Under the pieces are notes generated by a model. It saw nothing but the letters and a program-made list of their open reading frames with translations. It was not told the DNA's origin and did not search any database. The position numbers were made by a program, and so were the translations under genes. A stretch of 64,000 nucleotides of DNA, taken from assembly GCA_017396825.1 (NCBI GenBank), contig JAFQKR010000001.1:817-64816 (forward strand). The letters are read 5' to 3'. Positions 3,407 to 64,000 of the stretch are shown here, in pieces; the stretch's first letter is position 1, and each line of letters starts with the position of its first letter. Origin of the DNA: Clostridia bacterium (lineage in GTDB: Bacteria; Bacillota; Clostridia; Oscillospirales; CAG-382).

Positions 3407-6400
3407 ATGGCGCAAGTTTATTCAAAGCCCAAAAGAGCATTTGTGTTGTTTCTCGTAGCCGTTATGCTGTTTACCGGCTTCGGGGCAATGGGCACAACTG
3501 CTTCCGCTGAGTCTAACAAGACAACAGAACTGCCGGATTCCATGATCAGAACAGACCTTACGGACATGAAGACCGAGGCTTCTTCTATCACTTATGCGGA
3601 ATATCTGGCTCTTTACGCTGGTGTAAAGGATGCTACTAAGGATCAGTACATCGTTGATTTGCACAAAAATGTTAACACTGATGAGACTACTGCTTTCTAT
3701 CAGGAAGTTGCCAGCTTCGGTACCGGTGACGCAAAGATGGAAAACGTTCTTGTTTCCAGTGATGACGGTGCTATCACCTTTGATATTGATGTAAAAGTAA
3801 CAGCGTTTTACACTATTGAAATTACCTATAACACAGGTAGCCTTTATATTTACCGTTGCGGTGACGGCAAAGACGAGGGCTGCGGTCATATCGTTATAGA
3901 GGACCATGAAACTCTGCCCATCGAAAACGCTGTTTGCGATAAGTGCGGCAAGAAGATGTCTGTAACCTTCTCAAAGAACTCTGCAATAGAGCGTAAGGTT
4001 CGTATCGATGGTACTATTCCTTATAAGGAAGCTCGTTCCGTTGAACTTCAGCGTACTTGGGAAGATGTTTACATACTCAGAGACGAGGAAGGCGAAAAGA
4101 TAGGTACCTTGCCCTCTACCTCTAAAGATTATTATGATAAGGTAAATAACGACAATCGCTTCTTTGTTACCGATACTAACGGTAACGAGAAGAAGCCCGA
4201 AAAGTATATGTTCTCCGAGTGGGCAACCTCTATGCTTTACGACTCTACCGGTTATGCTTCCGAGCCTCTCAAGTTCTATCTTGAAGCCGGTAAGCACACC
4301 ATCTCTTTTGACGCGATAAGAGAGCCTGTTGTTATTTCTTCCATAAGCCTTAAGTCTTATGAGGCTCCCATTTCTTACGAAGAGTATTTGGCTAAGTATA
4401 ATGAAGCAGGCGCTAAGGATGTTCCCGCAGGCACCGAATTTACCGTGCAGGGCGAATATGCTTACAAGACCTCTGCTAAGACTATTTATCAGACCAGCGA
4501 CAGAGCATCTTATTACTCTGTTCCTCAGGACGTGTCCAAGACCATACTTAACGAGATTGGCGGCGACAAGTGGCAGTACGTTGGTCAGTGGATAGAATGG
4601 AAGGTAACCGCTCCTGCTACGGGTTATTACAAGATCGTTCCCCGTACCATTCAGGATTTCTATTCCGGCGTTTACGTTTCCAGAAAGCTTTATATTGACG
4701 GCGAAACTCCTTTCGCTGAAGCATCTCAGCTTCGCTTCAACTATACCGACAGTTGGCAGACGAAGACTCTTACCGACGGTAATACCGAATTCAAGTTCTA
4801 CCTTACCGAAGGTGAGCACACAATAAGGATGGAAGTTGTTCTTGGTCAAATGGCTGATATACTCAGCAATGTTGAAACTTCCCTTAACAACATTAACTCC
4901 TATTACAGAAAAATACTTATGATTACCGGTCCTGACCCTGATGAATACAGAGACTATGGCTTTGAACGTTCTCTCCCTGATGTTATCAGAGGTCTTAGAA
5001 AAGAAGCAAAGAACCTTACCGATATATCTAACAGTCTTTCTGAGATTATCGGTTACAAGGGCGAACACTCCGTAACACTTGATAAGGTTGCTTATACGGT
5101 AGGTCAGATGGGTGACTATCCCTCCAAGATCGCTTCTCTTATGGACGACCTTAAGACCCAGAGCGGTTCTCTCGGTACTTGGCTTACCCAAACTCAGAAT
5201 CAGCCCCTTAATATTGACTATATTAAGTTTATGGCTCCCGAGTCTAAGAACCCCGAGGCTGAAGCAGGCTTCTTTAAGGAATTCTGGAACGAAATCCTTA
5301 AGTTTATAATGTCCTTCTTCACCGACTATAACTCTATAAGCAGTACTTCCAAGAAGAACGCTGCTGCTAACGCTGACCAGGCACACACTATCGAGGTATG
5401 GGTTACCACCGGCCGTGACCAGGCTTCCATACTCAGAAACCTTGTTGACGATAGCTTTGCTGCTCAGTATCCCGGCATTAACGTAAAGGTTAAGTTGGTT
5501 GCTGCTGGTACGCTCTTGCCCTCTACTTTGGCAGGTACCGGCCCTGACGTATCTCTTGGTAATGCACAGACCGAAGCAATCAACTATGCTATCCGTTCTG
5601 CTGTTATGGCACTCAACGTTAAGACTGATGAAAACGGCAACTACGTTACCGACAACGGCTTTGACTTTGTAAATCTTGACAGATATGCAGATGATCCCGT
5701 GTTCAGCCAGTATCGTGATGCCAACGGTGAATGGACGGTTGATAATTTTGATGAAGTAAAGATGCGTTTTGCTGATCAAGCTATGGTTCCCCTTACTCTT
5801 TACGGTGAAACCTATGGTATCCCCGAAAACATGTCTTTCTACATGATGTTCTACCGCAAGGACATCCTTGCAGAACTTGATCTTGCCGTTCCAAACACTT
5901 GGGATGACTTCTATGACATGATCTACACCCTTCAGTCCAACAATCTGGAGATAGGCTTCCCCTCCGGTGTTACCGGCTCCACAATTTGGATGTATCAGCA
6001 GGGTGAAACCATGTACGACATGGGTAACTATGACGCATATATGGACAAATACGGCGATAAGCTTATTGCTGACGGAAACGTATACTACGACGACGAAGGC
6101 AACCTTATCCCTAAGACCGATGGTATGACCATTAATCTTGACAGCGATATCGCACTCGCTTGCTTTAAGGATGTTTGTCAGCTTTACACCATGTTCGATT
6201 TCCCTGTAACCTACGACTTTGCAAACCGTTTCCGTTCCGGCGAAATGCCTATTGCAATCGCAGATTACACAGCATACAACCAGCTTATCGTATTTGCTCC
6301 CGAAATCAATGGTATGTGGGAGTTCACACCTCTTCCCGGTACTGCTGATGTTAACGGTTACATAAACAATACCTCTGTTGGTACCGTAACTTCTATGATG

Positions 6401-49863: not shown

Positions 49864-50163
<300 letters not shown>

Positions 50164-50169
50164 TCTTAG

Positions 50170-51819
<1,650 letters not shown>

Positions 51820-52015: not shown

Positions 52016-52081
52016 TTATGTAGGTTTTTGTGCCTTTGCGGGGGGTGTGCTTTTGTGCATTTTTTGCGGAGGTGTTTTTTT

Positions 52082-53020
52082 ATGCTTAGGTTTTATAAAA
52101 ACTTTGGCGGCAGAGCCGTTGAAATTGAAGACTATACCGAAAACTGTTGGGTGCGTATGATAGCCCCCACCGAGGAAGAACTGCTTTGGGCTTGCTCAAA
52201 GCTGCACATTCCGGAGACCTTCTTGCGATCATCGCTGGACGAAGAGGAACGAAGCCGTATAGACGAGGAGGACGATTGCACTCTCATCATCGTTGACACT
52301 CCCACAGCAGAGAAAAACGGCACTGAAATTGAATACTCAACCATTCCTTTCGGCATTATAGTAACTCCGTCAGGCGTGGTAACAGTGTGTCTCAAAGAAA
52401 CTGCGCTGCCGGCTCAGATATTAGATGGTACCGTAAAGAACATAAAAACATCAAAGATTAGACGTTTTGTTCTTCAAATTCTCTTCCAAAATGCAACGTT
52501 GTTTTTGTACTATCTACGGCGAACCGAAAGGGAAATATCCAATACCGAAAAAAGCTTGCGTAATGATATGAGGAATAAGGAGCTTATCAGACTCTTACAT
52601 CTTGACAAAGGGCTTGTTTATTTCTCAACAGGCTTAAAGGGCGACCAGGCAGTGCTTGAAAAGCTTGCCCGTATGCGTTTTATCAGCGCTTATCCCGAGG
52701 ATGCCGAACTATTGGAGGACGTTATAGTAGAAAACCGTCAGGCAATGGAAATGTGTACAATATACAGAGATATCCTTTCGGGCACCATGAACGGGTATTC
52801 CAGCGTTATCTCAAATAATCTTAATACGGTCATGAAACTGCTTGCAGCTGTGACGATAATCTTGACCGTGCCACAGCTTGTGTTTTCTCTGTGGGGGATA
52901 AACGTTCCCGTGCCTTTTGAAGGCAACGAGTGGGGTTTTTTGGCCGTATTGGGGATAGGCACGGTGCTTACTGTCGGCGCCTTTGTGCTTGCCCTTTCCA
53001 GAAATTGGTTTAAAAAATAA
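52082..53020 (+). CDS. corA: CorA-family divalent cation transporter (GIN variant)
   Basis: LDEEERSRI, LVYFSTGL, ISNNLNTVMKLL, WGINVPVP, two C-terminal TM helices; ATG 52082 after GGAGGTG. Confidence 0.93.
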   Translation: MLRFYKNFGGRAVEIEDYTENCWVRMIAPTEEELLWACSKLHIPETFLRSSLDEEERSRIDEEDDCTLIIVDTPTAEKNGTEIEYSTIPFGIIVTPSGVVTVCLKETALPAQILDGTVKNIKTSKIRRFVLQILFQNATLFLYYLRRTEREISNTEKSLRNDMRNKELIRLLHLDKGLVYFSTGLKGDQAVLEKLARMRFISAYPEDAELLEDVIVENRQAMEMCTIYRDILSGTMNGYSSVISNNLNTVMKLLAAVTIILTVPQLVFSLWGINVPVPFEGNEWGFLAVLGIGTVLTVGAFVLALSRNWFKK

Positions 53021-53031
53021 ATATAAAAGAA

Positions 53032-53066
53032 AAACGAGGGTGCCGGGTGGCCCCTCGTTTGTTTTT
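53032..53066. terminator. Bidirectional terminator between corA and the recombinase/ssp 3' end
   Basis: AAACGAGGG...CCCTCGTTT with A-rich left flank and T-rich right flank. Confidence 0.75.
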
Positions 53067-53185: not shown

Positions 53186-53224
53186 TTATTTCATAGAATT
53201 TTCGGCGTTCTGGATCATCTTCTT
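53186..53224 (-). pseudogene. Probable 3' fragment of a split alpha/beta-type SASP (ssp) gene, fused in frame to the recombinase
   Basis: Encodes KKMIQNAENSMK*, which matches the clostridial SASP C-terminus (GGxMVKKMIxxxExxM) as recalled from family knowledge. Confidence 0.6.
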
Positions 53225-54856
53225 CAACGTGTGACCCGTACGACCTCTTAATTTCCGGAGCCATTTTTCCGTGCTTTCACCTGTAAATATCTTAATTTCA
53301 AGCTTTGCAAGGTCCTCTCCTTCCATTGTTACAATAATGTTATCAATGTACTGTGCCACAAACTCATTAGTAATCATACCCGTGCTTGCGTCTCTGATCG
53401 CCGCTTCCAAACGAGCCCTTACTTCACGCATATGCTTCTGATATTCTTCTCTGGTGAAAAGCTGTTCTTCAAGCTCGGCAAGAGTTCTTTTTGCTGCATC
53501 GATTTCTCGATCACAATTATCAGTCATTGATTTGAAATTAGCATTTGTAATAGAATCGGTTGCAACAAGCTCAAGCAGCTTGTTTTTCTTTTGTTCGCCA
53601 AGCTCGATGATTCGTCTTTGCTCTGCAATCTGCATTGATGTTTCATCGTCGTTTTCCAATGACTTAAACATGTCGGTATAGGTTTCAAGCAACGCTTCAA
53701 CGTCTACCTTGGTTTCGCTGAATGCTTCAAACAAGATGGGTTTGATTTCATCTTCGTATATGGGGAAAGAGGGGCAAGCGTCAGCGCCGTTGTTGATCTT
53801 TTTTGAGCATACCCATTTGGAATTAACGGTTCCATCTTTGCTCTTGGATTCTCTGCGATAGTAAGCAGCACCACAATGAGAACAGAACAGTTTTCCGGTA
53901 AGCAGGTTAGCATGATTACAAATGCCTTGGCGATTCTTTACGTCTTCGCTTCTGCGGCGTAATATCTCGTTGGCCTTATCCCATAATTCTTCAGATACAA
54001 GAGCAGGAACAATTTCGCCGGTTTCATCCTTAAACATTACCCATTCTTCAGGAGGCAAAAATTTTTGCTTCTTAGTGAACATATCAACGATACGCACTTT
54101 ATTACCTACGTAATAACCTTTGTATTTAGGGTTGGAGATAATCCCTGACATAGTGTTATGTGCTATTTTGTTGCCATTATAGTTGCGATAGCCTTGTTCA
54201 TAGAATAATGCTTCAAGCTGCTTCATGCTGTATTTGCCGGTTGCGTAAAGCCGAAACAAGTCGCGTACCATAGGGGCTTGGCTCTCGTCTATAACAAGGC
54301 GTTTTTCGTCCTTTGTGTAACCAAAGATGCGGCTATTACCAAGCACTACATTTGATTTAATTGCTTGCTGATGGCCGAATTTTACACGCGAGGAAAGCTT
54401 TCTAAGCTCGTCTTGGGCGATTGAAGACATAATAGTTAAACGTAGCTCTGCATCTTCATCAAGGGTATTTATGTTATCGTTCTGAAAGAATACGCCGACG
54501 CCCCAACTGAGAAGCTCTCTTGTGTATTGCAATGAGTCCAAAGTGTTACGGGCAAAACGTGAGATTTCTTTTGTGATGATAAGATCAAACATATCATCCT
54601 TAGCGTCAGAAATCATTTCATTAAAGCGTTTTCTTTTCTTTGTGGAAATGCCGGAAAGACCTTCATCAATGTAACCTGAAACAAAAGTCCACGCCTTGTT
54701 TTTCTTAATAAAATTCTCGTAATAAGATATCTGATTATCGAGTGAGTTAAGTTGTTCATCCGTGTCCGAAGAAACGCGGGCATAATAAGTAACCCTCAGA
54801 GGGATGTCGTATATTGTTTTTGCTCGCATCATTGTGCGAATGCTTAATATATCCAT
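53186..54856 (-). CDS. Large serine recombinase (SpoIVCA/TnpX-like)
   Basis: Catalytic YARVSS, DEGLSG, KEISRFARN, recombinase domain NPKYKG, zinc ribbon CSHC...C...C, coiled coil. Confidence 0.96.
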   Translation of the reverse strand: MDILSIRTMMRAKTIYDIPLRVTYYARVSSDTDEQLNSLDNQISYYENFIKKNKAWTFVSGYIDEGLSGISTKKRKRFNEMISDAKDDMFDLIITKEISRFARNTLDSLQYTRELLSWGVGVFFQNDNINTLDEDAELRLTIMSSIAQDELRKLSSRVKFGHQQAIKSNVVLGNSRIFGYTKDEKRLVIDESQAPMVRDLFRLYATGKYSMKQLEALFYEQGYRNYNGNKIAHNTMSGIISNPKYKGYYVGNKVRIVDMFTKKQKFLPPEEWVMFKDETGEIVPALVSEELWDKANEILRRRSEDVKNRQGICNHANLLTGKLFCSHCGAAYYRRESKSKDGTVNSKWVCSKKINNGADACPSFPIYEDEIKPILFEAFSETKVDVEALLETYTDMFKSLENDDETSMQIAEQRRIIELGEQKKNKLLELVATDSITNANFKSMTDNCDREIDAAKRTLAELEEQLFTREEYQKHMREVRARLEAAIRDASTGMITNEFVAQYIDNIIVTMEGEDLAKLEIKIFTGESTEKWLRKLRGRTGHTLKKMIQNAENSMK

Positions 54857-54972
54857 AATTCCAACCTTTTCTAAAAAGTTCGTTATATCATTATCTATAT
54901 CAATGATTATATAGAAAACGACTCAAAAACGCAATAGTAAGGTCGAACTTTGTAAAATATTTCCTCGTTGTA

Positions 54973-55152
54973 TTATAGGGCAGTTCTGTTATGAGAAAGC
55001 TTTGATTTTCTCATTGCGATTTTTTCAGTCATTTTCTTGTATTCTTTTTCAGAAATCGTACCATGTTCAAAAAGATAACGATTAAAATAATTTAACCAAA
55101 TATCCTCTGAAAGACGTTTTTCGCTATTTTCGTCGAACAAAGCTTTCTTCAT
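54973..55152 (-). CDS. Small (59 aa) protein upstream of the recombinase, candidate directionality factor
   Basis: ATG 55152 after GAGGTG; WLNYFNRYLFEHGTISEKEYKKM (SHOCT-like G.I...EY pattern). Confidence 0.7.
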   Translation of the reverse strand: MKKALFDENSEKRLSEDIWLNYFNRYLFEHGTISEKEYKKMTEKIAMRKSKLSHNRTAL

Positions 55153-55459
55153 TGCCCCCACCTCTTTTCGATGGAAATTCTCGTCTATGCTTTCAAATTA
55201 ACAAAGAAAACACATCAATAAAAAATATGGTGCTTATAATCAAATTTCCGGTTTACACTTAAAAATCTTCAAATTTGATTTTTGCCCCATATAAAACCAT
55301 GTATTCAAATTTTGCTTGTGTTTACGTTTCAGCATACCGTTATTTCGCGTTTTTAAAGACGCATTTATACTTGTTAAGAAATGAAGATGATTAATAATGT
55401 GTTGCGAAAAAAACGATCAAATAATAGCGCGGTTATTGTTAAAATGCGTAGTTTTTCTG

Positions 55460-55488
55460 TTGACATTTAATGATTTATAGTATAAAAT
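55460..55488 (+). promoter_or_regulatory. SigA-type promoter of the pilus operon
   Basis: TTGACA-N17-TAAAAT. Confidence 0.75.
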
Positions 55489-55578
55489 GATAAATTAGAA
55501 TAGGTATGCTTTCATGGCGCGGTGTGACTGTGTGTACCATTATTCATCATAATGCTTATTTTAAGGGCAGGTTAAATT

Positions 55579-56100
55579 ATGACGGAAAAAGATCTGAAAA
55601 AGTTAAGCAGGATAGAACTTTTGGAGATGCTTATCGAACAAACTGAGGAAAATCAAGAGTTAACGGCGCACATACGAGTGCTTCAGCAAAAACTTGACGA
55701 TAGGCGAATAATGATAGATGAGTCAGGCTCCATTGCTGAAGCGAGCCTTAAACTTAACGGCATTTTTGATGCGGCACAGGCGGCGGCAGACGAGTATTTG
55801 GAAAACGTGCGTCGTAACAGCGCTCGTCAGGAAAATCTTGTGGAAAAGGCAGAGGCTCTGGCAAGAGAAAAGGTGACCCAGATGATAGCCGAGGCTGATG
55901 AGCGTTGTCGCAGGATGGAGGATGAAACCGCCAGAAAATGCGATGCTATGACGATGAAGGCAAGACGAGAGGCTGATTCGTATTGGGCACAAGTATCCTC
56001 AAAGCTTAACGCCTATCTTAAACAGCATAGTGACTTAAAAAATCTTTTGACAAGGGATTTCCCTGCGGTAGGTAGCAGTAATTATTCTATGGATGATTGA
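55579..56100 (+). CDS. Cytoplasmic coiled-coil protein with DivIVA-like character
   Basis: LKKLSRIELLEMLIEQ, SIAEASL...AAQAAADEY, then a long A/E/R-rich coil; first gene of the pilus operon. Confidence 0.75.
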   Translation: MTEKDLKKLSRIELLEMLIEQTEENQELTAHIRVLQQKLDDRRIMIDESGSIAEASLKLNGIFDAAQAAADEYLENVRRNSARQENLVEKAEALAREKVTQMIAEADERCRRMEDETARKCDAMTMKARREADSYWAQVSSKLNAYLKQHSDLKNLLTRDFPAVGSSNYSMDD

Positions 56101-56102
56101 CA

Positions 56103-56687
56103 ATGAAAAAAAAACAAATAAAGGATATTCCGTCGATCCAAACCATGGAGGCGGAGCTTAAGCGTGTAAAGCATCGTAAAAGATATATCCGTGTTATACA
56201 AAGCACCTTATATACGCTTATAACCGTTGCCGCAGTGGCAGCGCTGGTGGCTACCTTATGGATGCCGGTGCTTCAGATACATGGAAACTCCATGTCGCCT
56301 ACCATGAATGACGGGAACATTCTTGTTTCCGTAAAAGGTGGCGGTTATGAAAGCGGTGATATAATTGCTTTCTATTATAACAATAAAATATTAGTGAAAA
56401 GAGTAATAGCACTCCCCGGTGATTGGGTGGATATGGACGAAAACGGCAATGTGTTCGTAAACAGCACCTTGCTTGACGAGCCGTATCTTGCCGAAAAGGC
56501 TTATGGGGATTGCGACCTTGAGTTCCCTTATCAAGTGCCTGCGGCGAAGCTTTTCGTGATGGGCGACCAACGAAGTGTTTCCGTTGATTCCCGCAATAGT
56601 GGCATAGGTTGTATTGCAGACGACCAAATAGTGGGAAAAATAGTCTTTAGAGTGTGGCCGTTATCGGATATAGGTGCGGTCGATTAA
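56103..56687 (+). CDS. lepB: Signal peptidase I (pilus-associated, S26 family)
   Basis: GNSMSPT (catalytic Ser), LVKRVIALPGD (catalytic Lys), FVMGD.R..S.DSR. Confidence 0.92.
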   Translation: MKKKQIKDIPSIQTMEAELKRVKHRKRYIRVIQSTLYTLITVAAVAALVATLWMPVLQIHGNSMSPTMNDGNILVSVKGGGYESGDIIAFYYNNKILVKRVIALPGDWVDMDENGNVFVNSTLLDEPYLAEKAYGDCDLEFPYQVPAAKLFVMGDQRSVSVDSRNSGIGCIADDQIVGKIVFRVWPLSDIGAVD

Positions 56688-56703
56688 AGGAAAACAAAGA
56701 ATT

Positions 56704-59700
56704 ATGAAGAAAAATGTGCTGCGACAAGCGGCAAGATACAGCAAAGCACACAATAGAATAAAACGCTGGCATCGTGTCGTAGCAGGTTTTTCGGCGGTGG
56801 TGGTATTCATTACTACCTATGCGCTTATCCTACCGGCACTTACCAAGGAGCGAGTTACGTACTGCGGTATGGAGGAGCATACCCACGGCGCGGAGTGTTA
56901 TTACACGCCCACCAAGGCTCTTACTTGCACCGCTTCTTCACACAGCCATAGCGAGGAGTGTATGGATGAGGATGGCAATTCGATTTGCGGTTATGCTAAC
57001 TTCTTGATACACAGCCATAACAAGCAATGCTATGACGAGAGGGGCTTACTGATTTGCCGTTTAGCTGAGATAGAACTTCACAGTCACGACGAGGCTTGCT
57101 ACTCTTTGGCAAGCGGAGAGATAAGCGATGAAGTTTCCTCTGAAATTAGCGAGGAAAAAACGCTCCACTGCGATAAGAGTGTATACACCTTACATACCCA
57201 TGGCGAAGGCTGTAAGGGCGAAAACGGAGACCTCCTTTGCGGAAAGACTGAGATTGTTGAACATATACACAGCGACGTTTGCTTTACCGCGTTAAGTGAT
57301 GCGGAGGCAGTACTTATCTGCTCACATAAGGAGCATAAGCACGACGAGGGCTGTTATGTGGATAAAACAGGGGATGTAGAAGAACCGGAGGATTGGGAGG
57401 CAAGCTTGCCCAAAACCCTTACAGGAGTGTGGCAGACAGATGTAGTGGAAGTAGCAAAAAGCCAGATAGGTTATTACGAGAGTTCTGTAAACACTGTTAC
57501 GGATAAAGATGGCAACACCAGAGGCTACACACGTTACGGCGCTTGGTATGGTTCTTCCTATGGTGTTTGGGATGCGACCTTTGCTTCTTTCTGTCTGTAC
57601 TACGCAGGGGTAAAGAAGGAGTACTTCAGTTTTGACTCCGACAGTGAACGCTGGATGGAGCATTTAGAAAAATCCGGCTATTATAAAAAGGCATCAGACT
57701 GTGCGCCTAAAGAGGGGTATCTTGTCTTTTTCAGGAACGGCTCGGGCAGTAGCGCGGTTTATACCGTAGGAATAGTTGCCGCAGTATTGATGGACGAGGA
57801 CGGTAACAATACAGGCGTAAAGGTTATCGCAGGTGACCTTGGCAACCGCGTACAGTATGCTGAATACGCTTTTACGGACGAAACTATAGTGGGCTACGGC
57901 ACACTTGATAAAGCATATGAGGAATATAAAAACAGCACTCCAAGAGAGCATACGTATACCGATGGCGAGGTTACAGTAAAGGCTACCTACTATCCTGCCG
58001 CAGGCATACCCCAAGGTGCGGAATTAGTAGTTAAGCCCATAGGTGATACACTTTCCGAGTATGACGATTGCTACAAGCAGGCTAAAGAACGGCTTGATGC
58101 GGCAAACGGACAGGTAAAGACCACAGATATAAAGGATTTCAAGCTTTACGATATACATTTCAACCTTGATGGTGAGGAAATACAGCCCATAGATACGGTA
58201 TATATAAGCGTTAGTTTTGCCGCCGAAGAGCACACCGAGGATACCGAGGTAACGGTGCTCCATTATACGGACGATAAGACTGAGGTTCCAAGAGTGCAGG
58301 AATACGAGGTGAAGGACGGTAAGTTAAAGGCTGACTTCCAAACGGACAGCTTTTCGCTGTTTGCTATAGTTACCTCCGAAAGCACGGTTAACTCTATAAT
58401 AACAGCAAACAAATTCAATGTAACTACATCAGGCGGGTGGTGGAATCAGACCATAAATCTTCCCACGGCCAATTGTGCCATTGTTTACGGCGGCTATGCT
58501 CTTACGGTTGACGAAAACGGTATCCTAAAGACCGTTGCAGTTCACACTCAGGAAAGTGGTGCAATAACTGTAGAAGAAAGTGCCGTGAGATGGCGGTTTG
58601 AAAGTACAAACTATATAAGAACTACTGTAAACGGTACAAATTATTACTTAATGGTTTCAGGTACCACACTTACCCTTACCTCTAATTCGGGGCAGCGCAG
58701 CTCCTTCACTCCCACCGCAACCAGTAACAACGTTACCTTGGCAAACAGCAATAGGTACATAAACCTTTCTGAATCGGGTGCGTCGATGGGCAACAGCGCT
58801 GCTCTCAGTCTTTACACAGTGCCCACGGGTGAGTTTACCGTAAACTTCGACGGCCGTATCGGTTATCCTCAGTACTATGGCAGTTCAAACTATAAGTTCA
58901 GAGGTTCTGAGAATAGGGGGGTGACCACGACAAACGGCGGCTACGTTACCCTGCCTGCAACTATGACCTTGCCGGGTAACTACCCAATGAAACTGAACGG
59001 CTGGTATGACATAATCAATATGGTCTACTACGACAGCTCCATGCTGGGTAAGCAGATAAAGGTCACCAACAACACTATTTTCTATCCCGAGTGGATAGCT
59101 GAAACCTACGATATAGGTCAGAACGCGGACGTGGTGGAGAATCAGCCCGATACCAGCGACTTTATTACCACCACCGTCTTTGACTATAACGAGCTATTCA
59201 ATACCCATAGCTCATATTATTCCACCACGGACAGCAAGTGGCACTTTGATCCCGATAGCGAGCTTGGATTTATCTTCTTCGACTACTTGACCGAGGGTAA
59301 TATCGGCAACATAACGGGTAAGAACGTTGAGGTGGACGGTATAACCGTAAACGAGGAGAAGACCGCAGGCACCCGTGGCGCAAGTACGAACTTCCCGGGG
59401 ACTATCACACCGGGTATATCCAACGAAACCAGACTTAACGCCCTATTCGGGGAAGATCCCGTGGCAGGCAGAATATCCTTGGGAGAGGGCGACTGGCTTT
59501 ACAGCTTCGACCCTGAGATAGGCTTCTATTATTACAACAGCGCTAAAAATGCCGCATCCTATAACCAAAGCGACCAGCGCTTTTACGTTTACGACTATAC
59601 AGTAAACATAGACAGTCAAAATAGCTTGAACGACTTTTTGCCCTTCAACTACGGCAAAACAACTTATAAGGAAAAGGACAACGAGGCAAACTACTGGTTT

Positions 59701-61799
59701 GGTATGAAGAGCGAAATAACCTTCTACCTTCCCGAGGACAGCGGCAGCCCCTATAACATTGCGGCAGACGGTAAAACCGATATGCAGCTTCGCTTCTCGG
59801 GTGACGACGACGTTTGGATATTTATCGACGGCGAGCTTGTTCTTGACCTTGGCGGCGTGCACGACGTGGTTTACGGCGAGGTAAACTTCGCTACGGGCAA
59901 GGTTAAAACGGGTCAGGCAATAGACGCAAACCATATAGCGGATAATACCGCGGACAGCTACGCAGGTATGCCGGGCGTTTCGGGCACGGCGGGTGTTACC
60001 ACTACCGATCTGCCTACGGTGCTTGAAGGCGGTACGGAGCATACCATAACCGTTTATTATCTGGAGCGTGGCTCTTCTCTTTCGAACTGCGCTATCTACT
60101 TCAACCTTTCTCCTTCCTATTCGCTGGAGATAACGAAGCATGACCAGGATAGCCGTTCACCCTTGGCAGGGGCCCAGTTCCAGATTTTCGATGACGAAGC
60201 CTGCACCCAGCCTTCTCTGCTTTACATAATGCAGGAGGACGGCACTCTTGAGGATGCACAGGGTGTTACCTTCACCACCGACGAGAACGGTATTGCAAAA
60301 TGCTGGGGTATGCTGCTTGGCAAATCCTACTACATAAAAGAGGTAAAACCGCCGCCGGGCTATACAGATATGTCCTACTACACAATAAGGATAAACCTTT
60401 CCGAAAGGGGCGAGGTTACTTATGTAGCATTGGACAGCAACGGCGGTCAATGGATATATGCTGATGCTTATATTTTCGCCTCGGACGAGGTACACCGTAT
60501 AGAAATAGATATATACAACGACGACATTGATAATTTGTTTGTCGGCGGCGAGGAAAAGCTGTATGTAGAAAAGGTCTGGGCAGAGGGTAGTGAAAGCATC
60601 CCCGACAGCATAGACGTAAGGCTTTACGCCAACGGCGTTGCCACCGACCGTATTATGACCCTTGACGAGGCAAATAACTGGCAGGGTATTTTCTACTCCC
60701 TTAAGGGAACGGACGACGAGGGTAACGAGATAGTCTACACCGTCAGGGAGGATAATCCACCCGCAGGCTTTGGCGACAGCTACAGCCGGGTAACGGGAAC
60801 GGAAACCTTGCCCGGAGAGGTTATACCTGCTCATTGGGAGCAGAAGGTCTATCTGGAGGACGGTGCTATTTACCGCTTCACCCTGCCCGATTATTACGGC
60901 TGGGCAATAAAGGGTATTTCAGGATCCGAGTCGATAGAGCCTGCAATAGCCGCGGACGGAAAAAATGATCAGCTATGGAAGGCGATAGCGGTAAACGGCG
61001 GCTTCCTGCTGCAAAACGTGGCTTACAATGACCGTTATCTGGGCGTAGGTCAAAACGTTGTGGGTACGACGGACACTACGGGTGCCCATGCCGTTATGAA
61101 CCTAGTCAACGGCTATCTTGTTTCCAATCAGGGGAGATACGTTCAAAAGGGCGCAAAGACCACGATAAACGGAAGCGGCTGGGGCTTTTACGGCGTAGGC
61201 ACGCAGGCAGAAGCCACGGGCGTTGTTGCCAACAAGTGGGTAGAGGAAACAGATACCTCTGTAACCGAGGAGATTGATGGCTGGCGTATTACCAACACTC
61301 CTTGGGACGAAACGACCTCCATACCCGTGGAAAAGCTGTGGGACGCCACGGTTTCCGAGGGACACAAGGAGGCGGTCGTCGTAAACCTATACCTGGTTAC
61401 CACGGGACAAACGGATACCGTTACTTATATATCAAGCCTGACGCTTAGCGCAGAAAATGGCTACAAGGGTAGCTTTGACTCTCTGGCTTATCCGGAAGAG
61501 GGAAGCTATTACTGCATCAGGGAAGTGACGGATAAATACGCGCCCACATACAGTGGCGAAATCGTCACCATCTTCACCGACAACGCCTACCACGACGCGG
61601 TCCGTGTTGAGATAGACAGCCGGGTAAGGGCGTAACCGTAAACATTACCAACTCGCTCCTTATATTGTTGCCCGAAACGGGTGGCAAGGGCGTCCTAACG
61701 TATACCATCGCAGGGACACTGCTTATGATAGCAGGTGCCGCCGCGTTGTATAAAAAACAAAAAAGCAGAGGGGAGGCTATAAACCAAACCAATGCGTAA
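56704..61799 (+). CDS. Large pilus tip adhesin (Cys/His repeats, degenerate CHAP, fibro-slime/PA14-like, SpaA and CnaB domains); its LPETG anchor is out of frame after about 61611-61632
   Basis: FSGDDDVWIFIDGELVLDLGGVH; PLAGAQFQI...YYIKEVKPPPGY; VEKVW and VEKLW CnaB starts; LPETGG-TM-basic tail in another frame at 61668-61799. Confidence 0.85.
56863..57357 (+). repeat. Seven C-x(4-7)-H-x-H-x3-C protein repeats
   Basis: CGMEEHTHGAEC, CTASSHSHSEEC, CGYANFLIHSHNKQC, CRLAEIELHSHDEAC, CDKSVYTLHTHGEGC, CGKTEIVEHIHSDVC, CSHKEHKHDEGC. Confidence 0.9.
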
Positions 61800-61858: not shown

Positions 61859-63442
61859 ATGAAACTAACCAGAAAAATCACAGGCGTTATCCTTCTCGCG
61901 CTCGCTATGCTTATCAGTATGGCTACAGCAGCCTTCGCTACCGACATCACCATCGAGGGTGGTGTGGAAGGCTCTGAATACGCAGCATACCAGCTCCTCG
62001 GCGCTACCGACGGCGGCGATGGCAAGTATGCCTACACCCTTAACGATAAGTACACCGCGATCCTTCAGTCCGTAACAGGCAAGACCGAGCAGGCGGATAT
62101 TGTTGCTTATATCGAAGCTCTTACCACTGCAGAAGCTATTCAGAACTTTGCTAACAGCGTTTACGAAGCAATCGTTGACGGCGGCATCGTTGCTGATGCA
62201 ACCACCGCTAACGACGTTTTTGCAAACGTTTCTCAGGGCTACTATCTTATAGCTGAAACCAAACTTGGTAACGACCAGGACACCTTCTCTCTCGTTATGC
62301 TTGACACCGCGGGTCAAGAAAACGTTACCGTTAGCACCAAGGAAGGCAAGCCTACCGTAGAAAAGAAGATAGAGGAAAAGAATGACAGCACAGGCGTATC
62401 CTCTTGGGGCGACCACGCTGACTACGACATCGGTGACAGCATCAACTATCGCATCACCGGTACCGTTTCCAGCAAGTACGCTGAATATAAGAGCTACTAC
62501 TACAGCTTTGTTGATACCATGGACGCAGGTCTTACCTACAACGGCGATGCAAAGGTTTACGTAGTAAACGGTGACAGCAAGGTTGAAGTTACCGAGCAGT
62601 TCGTTATCACCGCTGATACTGCGACAAACAGCTTTACCGTAACCTCCAACCTCAAAGAGCTTACGGGCGTTACAGTTAACGCTTCTACCGAAATAGTTGT
62701 TGAATACAGCGCAACCCTTAACGAAAACGCACTTCACGGCACCCCCGGCAACGAAAACAACGTTTACCTTGAATACGAAAACAGCCCTTACCACGAGGCT
62801 GACGGTGACAATAACCCCACCACCCCCAACAAGCCCGGTGAAGACACTCCCGAAGACGACACCGACGGTCCCAGCTCTACCCCTAAGGACGTAAATATAG
62901 TGTTCACCTTCAAGGCTGCCGTTAACAAGACCGACAAGGACGGGGCCGCTCTTGCAGGTGCAGGCTTTACACTTTATAAGGAAATCTACACCCCCGCAAG
63001 CGAAGGCGTTGAAGAAAACTACGCTTGGGTTAAAGTAGGCACCGAGATCACCGGTGTTACCACCTTTAACTTCCTCGGCCTTGACGCAGGTAAGTATAAG
63101 CTTGAAGAAACTACCGTTCCCGCAGGCTACAACAAGTGCAACGATATAGTATTTGAGGTTGTTTCCTCCTATGACAAAACCGTTGACCCTCCTGTGCTTA
63201 CAGGCATTTCTGTTAAGAACAGCGACGGCGAGGTTGTTTCTGATGATGAAGGCGAAGCTTCCTTTGCAGTTGTACTTGCAGAGGGCGCAGTTTCCACCGA
63301 CGTGGTAAACCTTACAGGTTCCGAGCTTCCCGGCACCGGTGGTATCGGTACTACCATATTCTACGTTCTCGGCGGTATCCTTCTCGTTGTTGGCGTAGTT
63401 GCTCTCGTTGCTAAGAAGCGTATGAGCGGTTCTGACAACTAA
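61859..63442 (+). CDS. Backbone (major) pilin, SpaA/isopeptide-domain family
   Basis: Signal peptide (AFA); pilin-lysine region STKEGKPTVEKKI; DTMDAGLTY; E-box YKLEETTVPAGYN; LPGTGGIGT-TM-KKR. Confidence 0.93.
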   Translation: MKLTRKITGVILLALAMLISMATAAFATDITIEGGVEGSEYAAYQLLGATDGGDGKYAYTLNDKYTAILQSVTGKTEQADIVAYIEALTTAEAIQNFANSVYEAIVDGGIVADATTANDVFANVSQGYYLIAETKLGNDQDTFSLVMLDTAGQENVTVSTKEGKPTVEKKIEEKNDSTGVSSWGDHADYDIGDSINYRITGTVSSKYAEYKSYYYSFVDTMDAGLTYNGDAKVYVVNGDSKVEVTEQFVITADTATNSFTVTSNLKELTGVTVNASTEIVVEYSATLNENALHGTPGNENNVYLEYENSPYHEADGDNNPTTPNKPGEDTPEDDTDGPSSTPKDVNIVFTFKAAVNKTDKDGAALAGAGFTLYKEIYTPASEGVEENYAWVKVGTEITGVTTFNFLGLDAGKYKLEETTVPAGYNKCNDIVFEVVSSYDKTVDPPVLTGISVKNSDGEVVSDDEGEASFAVVLAEGAVSTDVVNLTGSELPGTGGIGTTIFYVLGGILLVVGVVALVAKKRMSGSDN

Positions 63443-63528: not shown

Positions 63529-64000
63529 ATGAAAAAGCATTTTACAACCTTACTTTTAATAACCGTCGTTCTTCTTGGTGCGTCCTTGCTTCTGTATCCT
63601 ACGGTAAGCGATTATTGGAACTCTCTGCGTCAATCTCGCGCCATAGCAAGCTATGTTGATGATATTAACAACATGGACGAGGAAAAGTATCAAAAAATAC
63701 TGAAGGATGCGGAGGAATATAACAAAAGGTTGGCGGCAACCCCTCACTCGCTTATACTTGATAAGGAGCAAAGGGAAGATTACAACAAACAGCTTGATGT
63801 GTCGGGCAACGGTATAATGGGGTATATAGATATCCCCGATATCTCCTGCCACCTACCCATATATCACGGCGTAGGCGACGACGTTTTGCAGGTTGCCGTG
63901 GGCCACATGGACGGCTCTTCTCTTCCCATAGGCGGCAAAAGTACTCATGCTGTGCTGTCAGGGCATAGGGGGCTTCCCTCTGCCAAGTTGTTTACCGACC
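63529..64000 (+). CDS. srtC: Class C (pilin-specific) sortase, 3'-truncated by the window edge
   Basis: Not in the ORF track; translated manually: LLLYP, GYIDIP, LPIYHG, GHMDGSSLPIGG, HAVLSGHRGLPSAKLFTD. Confidence 0.95.
   Translation, partial: MKKHFTTLLLITVVLLGASLLLYPTVSDYWNSLRQSRAIASYVDDINNMDEEKYQKILKDAEEYNKRLAATPHSLILDKEQREDYNKQLDVSGNGIMGYIDIPDISCHLPIYHGVGDDVLQVAVGHMDGSSLPIGGKSTHAVLSGHRGLPSAKLFTD

Follow-up and report, generated by a model that had tools for sequence, protein, structure and literature searches.

Large serine recombinases (LSRs) are known to excise elements from genes of the sporulation programme, among them skin from sigK, SPbeta from spsM, vfbin from spoVFB, gin from gerE and yin from yabG. 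In the passages that deal with these elements, the interrupted genes are presented as mother-cell genes (PMC4191935, PMC5595907, PMC10747680, bioRxiv 10.1101/2022.02.25.481979) and excision is placed in a terminal cell (PMC4191935, PMC10747680); the relevant parts of PMC5025042, PMC8270828 and PMC12904643 served as further sources on sporulation intervening elements. That the known targets are all mother-cell genes fits the view that such a rearrangement is tolerated only in a terminal cell. We analysed a 64,000-nucleotide stretch of DNA from a Clostridia bacterium (contig JAFQKR010000001.1; hereafter the window), in which an LSR element of 11,424 bp almost certainly splits ssp, the gene of a small, acid-soluble protein from spores (SASP) of the alpha/beta type, as had been proposed from the letters of the window alone (the original prediction). 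Expression of ssp in the forespore under SigG is established for Bacillus, according to the passage on sspC in PMC8270828. As far as the literature found shows, this would make the element the first found in a gene working inside the future spore: neither an ssp-intervening element, of which the original prediction knew no description, nor a sigG- or spoIVA-intervening element was found in the main texts of Creative Commons papers in PMC and of bioRxiv preprints, although PMC4191935, PMC5595907 and the Galperin preprint may give further targets in their supplementary tables.

The window's own genome (G000) is a draft of 1.63 Mb in 99 contigs with a completeness of 86.9%. In the following, relatives' genomes carry G-labels, locus records L-labels and recombinase proteins P-labels, and positions called window-equivalent continue the numbering of the window past 64000. 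The recombinase at one edge of the element ends in ...GRTGHTLKKMIQNAENSMK. Its Resolvase (PF00239, E 3e-28), Recombinase (PF07508, E 4e-19) and Zn_ribbon_recom (PF13408, E 3e-12) domains all scored above the cut-offs, as is required of a large serine recombinase. Moreover, the protein matched the PHROG 95 integrase with an E value of 1e-108, and Y25, S29 and three Cys residues were invariant among 52 relatives. The minus-strand DNA at the junction reads ACG GGT CAC ACG TTG AAG AAG ATG ATC, as first quoted. A congener, G006, has an intact alpha/beta SASP of 61 aa, and we found that the recombinase shares its last 12 residues with this protein without any difference, which excludes a chance likeness of the tail and bears out the proposal that the last 12 codons and the stop of the recombinase gene derive from the host ssp. 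From the crossover core to the stop codon, the attachment site at this junction (attR) equals the empty site (attB) of G006 save for one visible T-for-C difference, as read by eye.

The other half of ssp had not been seen. The stretch 54857-55578, upstream of the recombinase gene, is indeed free of it and holds a 62-aa open reading frame (ORF), hereafter orf62, and the start of a 173-aa ORF. The missing 5' half was identified just beyond the window, where it had been expected, on the minus strand at C4:65456-65608 (window-equivalent 64640-64792). It is the sole match to the SASP profile PF00269 in the G000 genome and covers profile positions 1-52 of 59 with 83.9 bits, short of the full-length match (1-59) that intact congener genes give. 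The ORF at the 5' half has 82 codons, of which the first 50 are SASP codons and the following 32 are unrelated to SASP, and the promoter and ribosome-binding site of this part are intact. When residues 1-50 of the 5' part were joined with the last 11 residues of the LSR, the intact 61-residue SASP of G006 was obtained. The 5' part and the 3' stub lie on the same strand, which implies excision and not inversion; an inversion switch was rejected on this ground.

The empty site was also found. In the congeners G001, G002 and G009, an intact ssp lies convergent with corA, as had been anticipated for relatives without the island. The PF00269 search covered 41 genomes (the relatives plus G000), gave ssp matches in 34 of them, and 16 intact genes were among the loci listed. 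In four genomes (G000, G012, G036 and G037) the ssp 5' part carries the same kind of foreign tail, and in none of these was a second PF00269 match detected, including G036 and G037, which are both 100% complete. The frames of Spo0A, SpoIVA and GPR, the protease specific for SASPs, have stayed open in G000. Taken together, the insertion into a coding sequence, the direct orientation of the two gene halves and the reading frame that precise excision would restore are what defines a sporulation-gene intervening element. In these respects, and in the position of the recombinase at the element edge beside the 3' gene fragment, the locus resembles skin, SPbeta, vfbin, gin and yin. However, the known targets are mother-cell genes, whereas the target here, ssp, is a forespore gene of the germ line, so that the mother-cell part of the definition does not apply.

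Further irregular ssp loci were observed in relatives. In the second ssp copy of G006 (L060, on the minus strand of G006:C66 at about 5465-5617), the break comes some codons earlier, at ..GGQM followed by AKKHYSHTNK and a stop; no recombinase was found within 5 kb of it, its neighbours being a DUF3990 gene and others, and the break may reflect a different element or strain heterogeneity. In G012 (L003, G012:C32:1-2202), the ssp 5' part with the element tail is located downstream of corA and points the same way instead of converging with it; the contig stops 460 bases further on, and either a local inversion or a join made during assembly could account for the layout.

We then compared the junctions base by base. 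AAGA was the only sequence common to attR, the junction at the ssp 5' half (attL) and the G006 attB in the alignment, and it lies inside the range 53213-53236 in which the junction had been predicted. The 30 bases to the left of the core at attR were compared with those 30 to its right at attL, the latter taken as reverse complement. With the arms at register 0 around AA, 15 of 30 positions matched in G000, 18 in the cultured carrier NK3B98, 19 in L124 and 22 in L142; among shuffled arms, the best match averaged about 10.6 and did not exceed 17. Symmetry at register 0 around AA was present in 4/4 elements with both ends available. Short attachment sites with imperfect inverted-repeat arms around a 2-bp crossover characterise serine integrases, and the attP here is built in this way. 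Judged by these alignments, integration is LSR-type recombination of attP with attB at AA within the V-K-K codons, 11-12 codons before the ssp stop. Three family members, L096, P0133 and P0134, have the element reversed in the same ssp site; here the LSR enters the antisense strand of the ssp 5' part and ends in ..LTI, and the centre in L096 (11600-11800) is TT in the orientation of the LSR. In serine integrases the central dinucleotide alone sets the orientation of integration, which would fit the TT in the reversed elements.

The arms of attP are at the same time coding sequence. The left arm encodes the ..GRTGHTL of the LSR, and the right arm opens the 32-codon tail fused to ssp. Because both junctions are in the ssp frame, the LSR frame in an excised circle would continue into this tail; and because attP lies within the LSR ORF, integration reciprocally exchanges the C-termini of the LSR and the SASP. 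This exchange goes beyond the original prediction, as does the size of the horizontally spreading family described below. In the integrated state, the LSR has lost a conserved tail of about 32 residues and gained 11-12 SASP codons, while the SASP 5' part has gained the LSR tail to give an 82-aa protein. We compared the attL tails of seven elements (G000, G012, G036, G037, NK3B98, L124 and L142). They are of equal length, apart from one additional residue in one of them, and free of stops; they keep P, R, R, R, GH and Y positions and are otherwise about 25-35% identical, as estimated by eye. Beyond the arm, 10 of the codon differences between the tails of G000 and G012 are synonymous and 8 are non-synonymous. 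For the excised form, an LSR of 544 + 33 = 577 residues was predicted. A protein of exactly this length, P0061, is encoded on a 7.3-kb contig; its native tail, of the type found on ssp 5' halves elsewhere, is contiguous with an LSR body 91% identical to that of the window. P0061 supports the difference of the integrase C-terminus between the two states that the original prediction had proposed. Native-type tails were also found on cluster representatives at a greater distance and on predicted viral contigs.

An attP inside the element's own integrase gene is familiar from Mx8 (intP/intX) and SSV1 (int), where integration alters the C-terminus of the integrase or splits its gene. Those enzymes are tyrosine recombinases, whereas here a large serine recombinase is involved and the exchange is reciprocal with a host protein. 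The location of attP within the LSR ORF, with both proteins swapping their C-termini, also sets the present element, whose excision is putative, apart from the known sporulation intervening elements.

The original prediction had further expected SASP tails on homologous recombinases, and these proved to be the rule. Among the 120 closest database homologues (85-99% identity to the window LSR), 119 end in a SASP tail, the remaining one being P0061. The 119 tails comprise 48 distinct C-terminal 12-mers on LSR bodies that are at least 85% identical, and such near-identical recombinases on diverse host gene ends point to repeated recent integration in different hosts. In species-representative genomes, we found 565 stretches that encode relatives, and roughly 2,500 relatives have E values below 1e-30. 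In the best 80 of the 565, taken with one genome per species (66-92% identity), a SASP tail was present in 76; of the other four, one lies at a contig end and three differ (L096, L098 and L101). The sources of these 80 loci are gut metagenome-assembled genomes that bear the labels Oscillospiraceae, Acutalibacteraceae, Faecousia, Flemingiibacterium, Flavonifractor and others, and include one cultured carrier, Clostridiales bacterium NK3B98. In NK3B98, L124 and L142, the ssp 5' half was found within the 10-kb flank, giving elements of about 8 to 11.5 kb, with about 11.5 kb in NK3B98 (L115); the G036 element measures about 24 kb. A tree was built with mafft and FastTree from the first 470 residues of 80 sequences (500-700 aa with an M start, from 150 representatives, to which G000 and five close homologues were added). 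All 14 SASP-tailed and both antisense-ssp-tailed sequences fell into one clade of 28 with a support of 1.00. On this combined evidence, the 11,424-bp element is a site-specific integrative element of a large, horizontally spreading family.

One record labelled 'Bacteriophage sp.' (MT837325.1, L172; 7.1 kb, from human faeces) carries an LSR with a SASP tail and an orf62 homologue beside a deaminase gene. We rejected its reading as a phage; it represents a bacterial chromosomal fragment with an integrated family member.

Within the family, gene content varies around a small constant part. Matches to orf62 were obtained by tblastn in 63 of 83 locus records, always directly upstream of the LSR gene, and an alignment of 36 members revealed invariant W19, L20, Y22 and N24. 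No family was found for orf62 in Pfam, NCBIfam or PHROGs, and in the Atlas only unnamed clusters scoring below 0.9 were hit. Its position and conservation make orf62 the best candidate for a recombination directionality factor (RDF), which is a guess. In the skinCd model of Clostridioides difficile (CD1231/CD1234), as the part of PMC5025042 devoted to it describes, synthesis of the LSR is constitutive, and where excision takes place is determined by a small RDF that a compartment-specific sigma factor controls. The present locus is similar in that a small conserved ORF lies beside the LSR, but orf62 belongs to no known family, and the motif upstream of it (see below) is forespore-like and not mother-cell-like and is missing in G000.

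The 59-aa ORF and the LSR together are, by their recurrence across the family, the conserved core, and the rest is exchangeable cargo. None of the cargo genes of G000 had a tblastn match in any of the 83 records at the threshold used. A signal peptidase, a 1653-aa tip-like protein, a pilin and a sortase make up what looks like a complete sortase-dependent pilus operon (Table 1). The cargo of NK3B98 (L115, 1012-9857) consists of RelB, JetD_C, DUF6063 and a 1453-aa ORF; that of L124 includes an HTH regulator and a Viral_Rep protein; that of L142 an FtsK-like protein and a Rep_trans protein; and that of G036 (L061/L023) Rhs-repeat and PT-HINT proteins, a Fic protein and a tyrosine recombinase. 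The NK3B98 and G036 sets look like defence or competition genes. Lack of cargo conservation between elements is likewise noted in the corresponding parts of the gin paper (PMC5595907) and the Galperin survey (bioRxiv 10.1101/2022.02.25.481979). The family also resembles the integrative mobilizable or conjugative elements of Bacillota that use serine integrases, in that it inserts site-specifically into a conserved gene's 3' end, has variable cargo and has spread between genera; moreover, two members carry genes of the mobilizable type (Rep_trans with FtsK-like in L142, and the Rep-type gene Viral_Rep in L124). It differs from them in its sporulation target and in the absence of a look-alike replacement of the gene end, and the G000 copy has no recognisable mobilisation gene, neither a relaxase or oriT nor a coupling protein. 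A prophage was rejected, as no structural, packaging or lysis genes were found among the scanned ORFs of G000, NK3B98, L124, L142 and G036. Some more distant LSR relatives sit in predicted viral contigs.

Table 1. Features of the ssp locus and of the element, in window coordinates
Feature	Position	Strand	Basis
corA, host flank, convergent with ssp	52028..53020	+	Pfam CorA, E 5e-48
G+C-rich hairpin, likely shared terminator, between corA and the ssp 3' end	53031..53060	.	read by eye
ssp 3' fragment, 12 codons KKMIQNAENSMK and stop, now the recombinase C-terminus	53186..53224	-	matches G006 ssp
attR crossover core AAGA; central dinucleotide AA at 53223-53224	53221..53224	-	attL/attR/attB alignment, arm symmetry
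attP left arm, within the LSR coding sequence, encodes ..GRTGHTL	53225..53254	-	arm match test
Large serine recombinase (LSR), integrated form, 556 aa	53186..54856	-	Pfam, PHROG 95
orf62, 59 aa from ATG, RDF candidate, upstream of LSR	54973..55152	-	tblastn conservation
173-aa coiled-coil-like ORF, cargo	55579..56100	+	without family match at the thresholds used
S26 signal peptidase, cargo	56097..56687	+	Pfam Peptidase_S26, E 1e-32
1653-aa surface protein, PA14/SpaA/Cna_B, pilus-tip- or adhesin-like, cargo	56674..61635	+	domain matches
527-aa pilin backbone subunit, cargo	61859..63442	+	GramPos_pilinBB E 1e-23, SpaA; LPGTG sorting signal
Sortase gene, cargo, passes the window end and stops at window-equivalent 64353	63529..64000	+	Pfam Sortase, E 3e-23
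17-bp-stem hairpin beyond the window, after the sortase gene	window-equivalent 64369-64407		
ORF, ssp 5' half fused to the 32-residue LSR tail	window-equivalent 64547-64795	-	
attL core AAGA	window-equivalent 64645-64648		

The hairpin between corA and the ssp stub reads ACGAGGG ... CCCTCGT followed by a T run; it was recognised by eye and is absent from the list of the terminator scan. On the host side, groES and groEL lie at 49879-51819, upstream of corA, and the order groEL-corA-ssp is common to the congeners.

More distant recombinases of this type were found in other sporulation genes. In two representatives and three relatives' genomes, a complete SpoIVA_C domain (E 1e-33) forms an in-frame fusion with an LSR. 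These spoIVA-type elements are represented by G019:C23:12358-31533 (with L042 as the LSR end), L041 (G025) and L043 (G017), and their LSRs are 43-44% identical to that of the window. The SpoIVA ATPase part of G019 is found on the same strand at a distance of about 18 kb, and the fused SpoIVA_C is the genome's sole copy. An orf62 profile gave no homologue upstream of the spoIVA-type LSRs. Similarly, three LSR cluster representatives, P0153, P0158 and P0176, end in a sigma-factor tail, ..GISQAQVSRLEK.., which matches the ends of the relatives' SigG orthologues (SigG loci L143-L151) and not those of SigF-like proteins; in the tree, these three lie in a clade separate from the SASP-tailed sequences (support 0.92). 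The SigG-type tails suggest that sigG, likewise a forespore gene, harbours elements in its 3' end. Without spoIVA or sigG, spores are not made, and the LSR fusions to SpoIVA_C and SigG ends indicate that related lineages split genes required for spores. We also observed sigG genes broken mid-gene in L150 (G025:C10:20558-24043) and L151 (G001:C42:3146-6634), where the 3' part starts from ..PMI(I/L)GE.. after unrelated sequence; the 5' part of the G025 gene (profile 2-96) lies on another contig, at C15:14532-14816.

To characterise expression signals, a k-mer and regex search was run on the regions upstream of orf62. Of 57 elements, 20 carry the motif G[AT]AT[AT]-N18-GAAAATA at a distance of about 55 nt upstream of orf62, compared with 0 for the reverse complement and 0.2 for shuffles. 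The motif-bearing loci are L071, L076, L078, L080, L083, L084, L087, L092, L093, L095, L097, L100-L106, L109 and others, and these 20 loci are mutually related. It is similar to the promoters of ssp in the hosts themselves, G[TC]ATA-N17-CA[TCA]AATA, and its reading as a SigG/SigF-type promoter is tentative. It is missing upstream of orf62 in the G000 element and in 36 other loci. A sigma-70 promoter scan of the sequence returned about as many sites as shuffled sequence, and an alignment of the orf62 upstream regions was uninformative.

Excised forms were sought in assembled Logan contigs of four runs from four studies, which were matched against the 16-kb locus and in which rare forms are invisible. 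The raised depth over ssp and groEL in this look-up came from the copies of other organisms. We somewhat favour an account in which the element is primarily mobile and uses ssp as its landing site, without obligatory developmental timing. The LSR, assisted by an RDF for which the 59-aa ORF is the best candidate, would excise the element precisely, and this would rebuild both the 61-codon ssp and a full-length LSR gene. A gene that is silent during growth would offer a conserved landing site, and excision need not be tied to development. Several observations weigh against this account. A 'safe harbour' leaves unexplained that 4/4 carriers examined have no other alpha/beta SASP gene, and the related lineages in spoIVA and sigG occupy genes whose loss should block sporulation. 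Since orf62 belongs to no known family, its role as RDF is a guess. No relaxase, replication or conjugation gene was detected in the G000 element by Pfam, NCBIfam and PHROG scans, so the G000 copy may not move on its own. Finally, the contigs of the four runs contained no element-skipping joint among the 15 listed and no circle junction; as contigs drop rare variants, missing excised joints say nothing on excision.

The same two observations on the carriers' SASP genes and on the related lineages also speak for a second account, a programmed switch with re-integration that would act like skin or SPbeta, only in the forespore. A forespore sigma factor would drive the RDF (orf62), the LSR would excise the element, and ssp would be rebuilt as SigG expresses it; the non-replicating circle would be trapped in the non-dividing spore, and the full-length LSR would re-integrate it at germination, so that the element would be inherited. 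We consider this possible, though doubtful. The target is a forespore gene and the carriers' sole alpha/beta SASP gene; Spo0A, SpoIVA and GPR remain open frames in G000; related LSRs split spoIVA with the same layout (G019) while others end in SigG-type C-termini; and an ssp-promoter-like motif precedes orf62 in part of the family. The C-terminal swap gives the LSR two state-specific forms, and the intervening elements discussed in the relevant passages of PMC4191935, PMC5595907, PMC5025042 and PMC10747680 all excise during sporulation. However, the motif is absent from the window's own element and from most of the other loci, its positive loci are interrelated, and its assignment to SigG or SigF is tentative. 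Moreover, the four runs yielded no excised form, the excised form is represented by just one protein among the 120 closest, and no precedent for a forespore rearrangement was found in the literature searched. Some of the hosts may not sporulate at all: Flavonifractor plautii and Oscillibacter valericigenes are called non-spore-forming in the part of bioRxiv 10.1101/2022.02.25.481979 that treats them. Equally tentative is the wider proposal of a programmed and reversible germ-line rearrangement, in which a forespore RDF would trigger excision from ssp, and in related lineages from sigG, with the C-terminal swap as a marker of state that biases the direction of recombination. A known case of reversible excision without loss of the element, in which the host gene is restored when needed, is the comK prophage of Listeria. 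This active lysogeny appears under the name 'phage-RS' in PMC10747680. It has no link with sporulation, and a parallel behaviour of the ssp element is hypothetical.

It is improbable that the element is a dead insertion, that is, an immobile remnant that has permanently altered ssp in a host that uses the 82-aa fusion or no longer depends on spores. Such a state would agree with the lack of mobility genes in the G000 element, with the absence of excision from the contigs and with a fusion protein that keeps the SASP region to profile position 52 of 59, along with its promoter and ribosome-binding site. However, the LSR and orf62 frames are intact and the ssp stub is still identical to the congener's ssp end. 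The near-identical LSRs on 48 host tails argue for recent, repeated integration, and P0061 shows that an LSR of the excised form exists. Chimeric joins in a metagenome-assembled genome are extremely improbable as the source of the locus, in spite of the draft state of G000 and the odd layout on the short contig of G012, as both junctions lie on one 68-kb contig, the same junctions are bridged by contigs from other studies (attR in X3, attL in X1 and X2), and the architecture is found again in 76 of 80 independent genome records, one of them from a cultured isolate.

The mobile-element account, like its rivals, bears on how sporulation genes serve as sites of DNA rearrangement. The family that occupies ssp breaks the pattern of mother-cell targets, and related lineages appear to occupy sigG as well. 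In the bacterium studied here, only ssp encodes the protein by which spore DNA is coated and protected; if many gut Clostridia make spores with an altered SASP, this would bear on the resistance of their spores and on their transmission. If the germ-line compartment excises the element reversibly, this would be a new kind of developmental DNA rearrangement. The family moves adhesin, defence-like and Rhs-type cargo between gut species, and it is a source of serine integrases whose 2-bp crossover is defined and whose natural target is conserved. With a cultured isolate among the carriers, the question of whether and when ssp is rebuilt can be tested at the bench.

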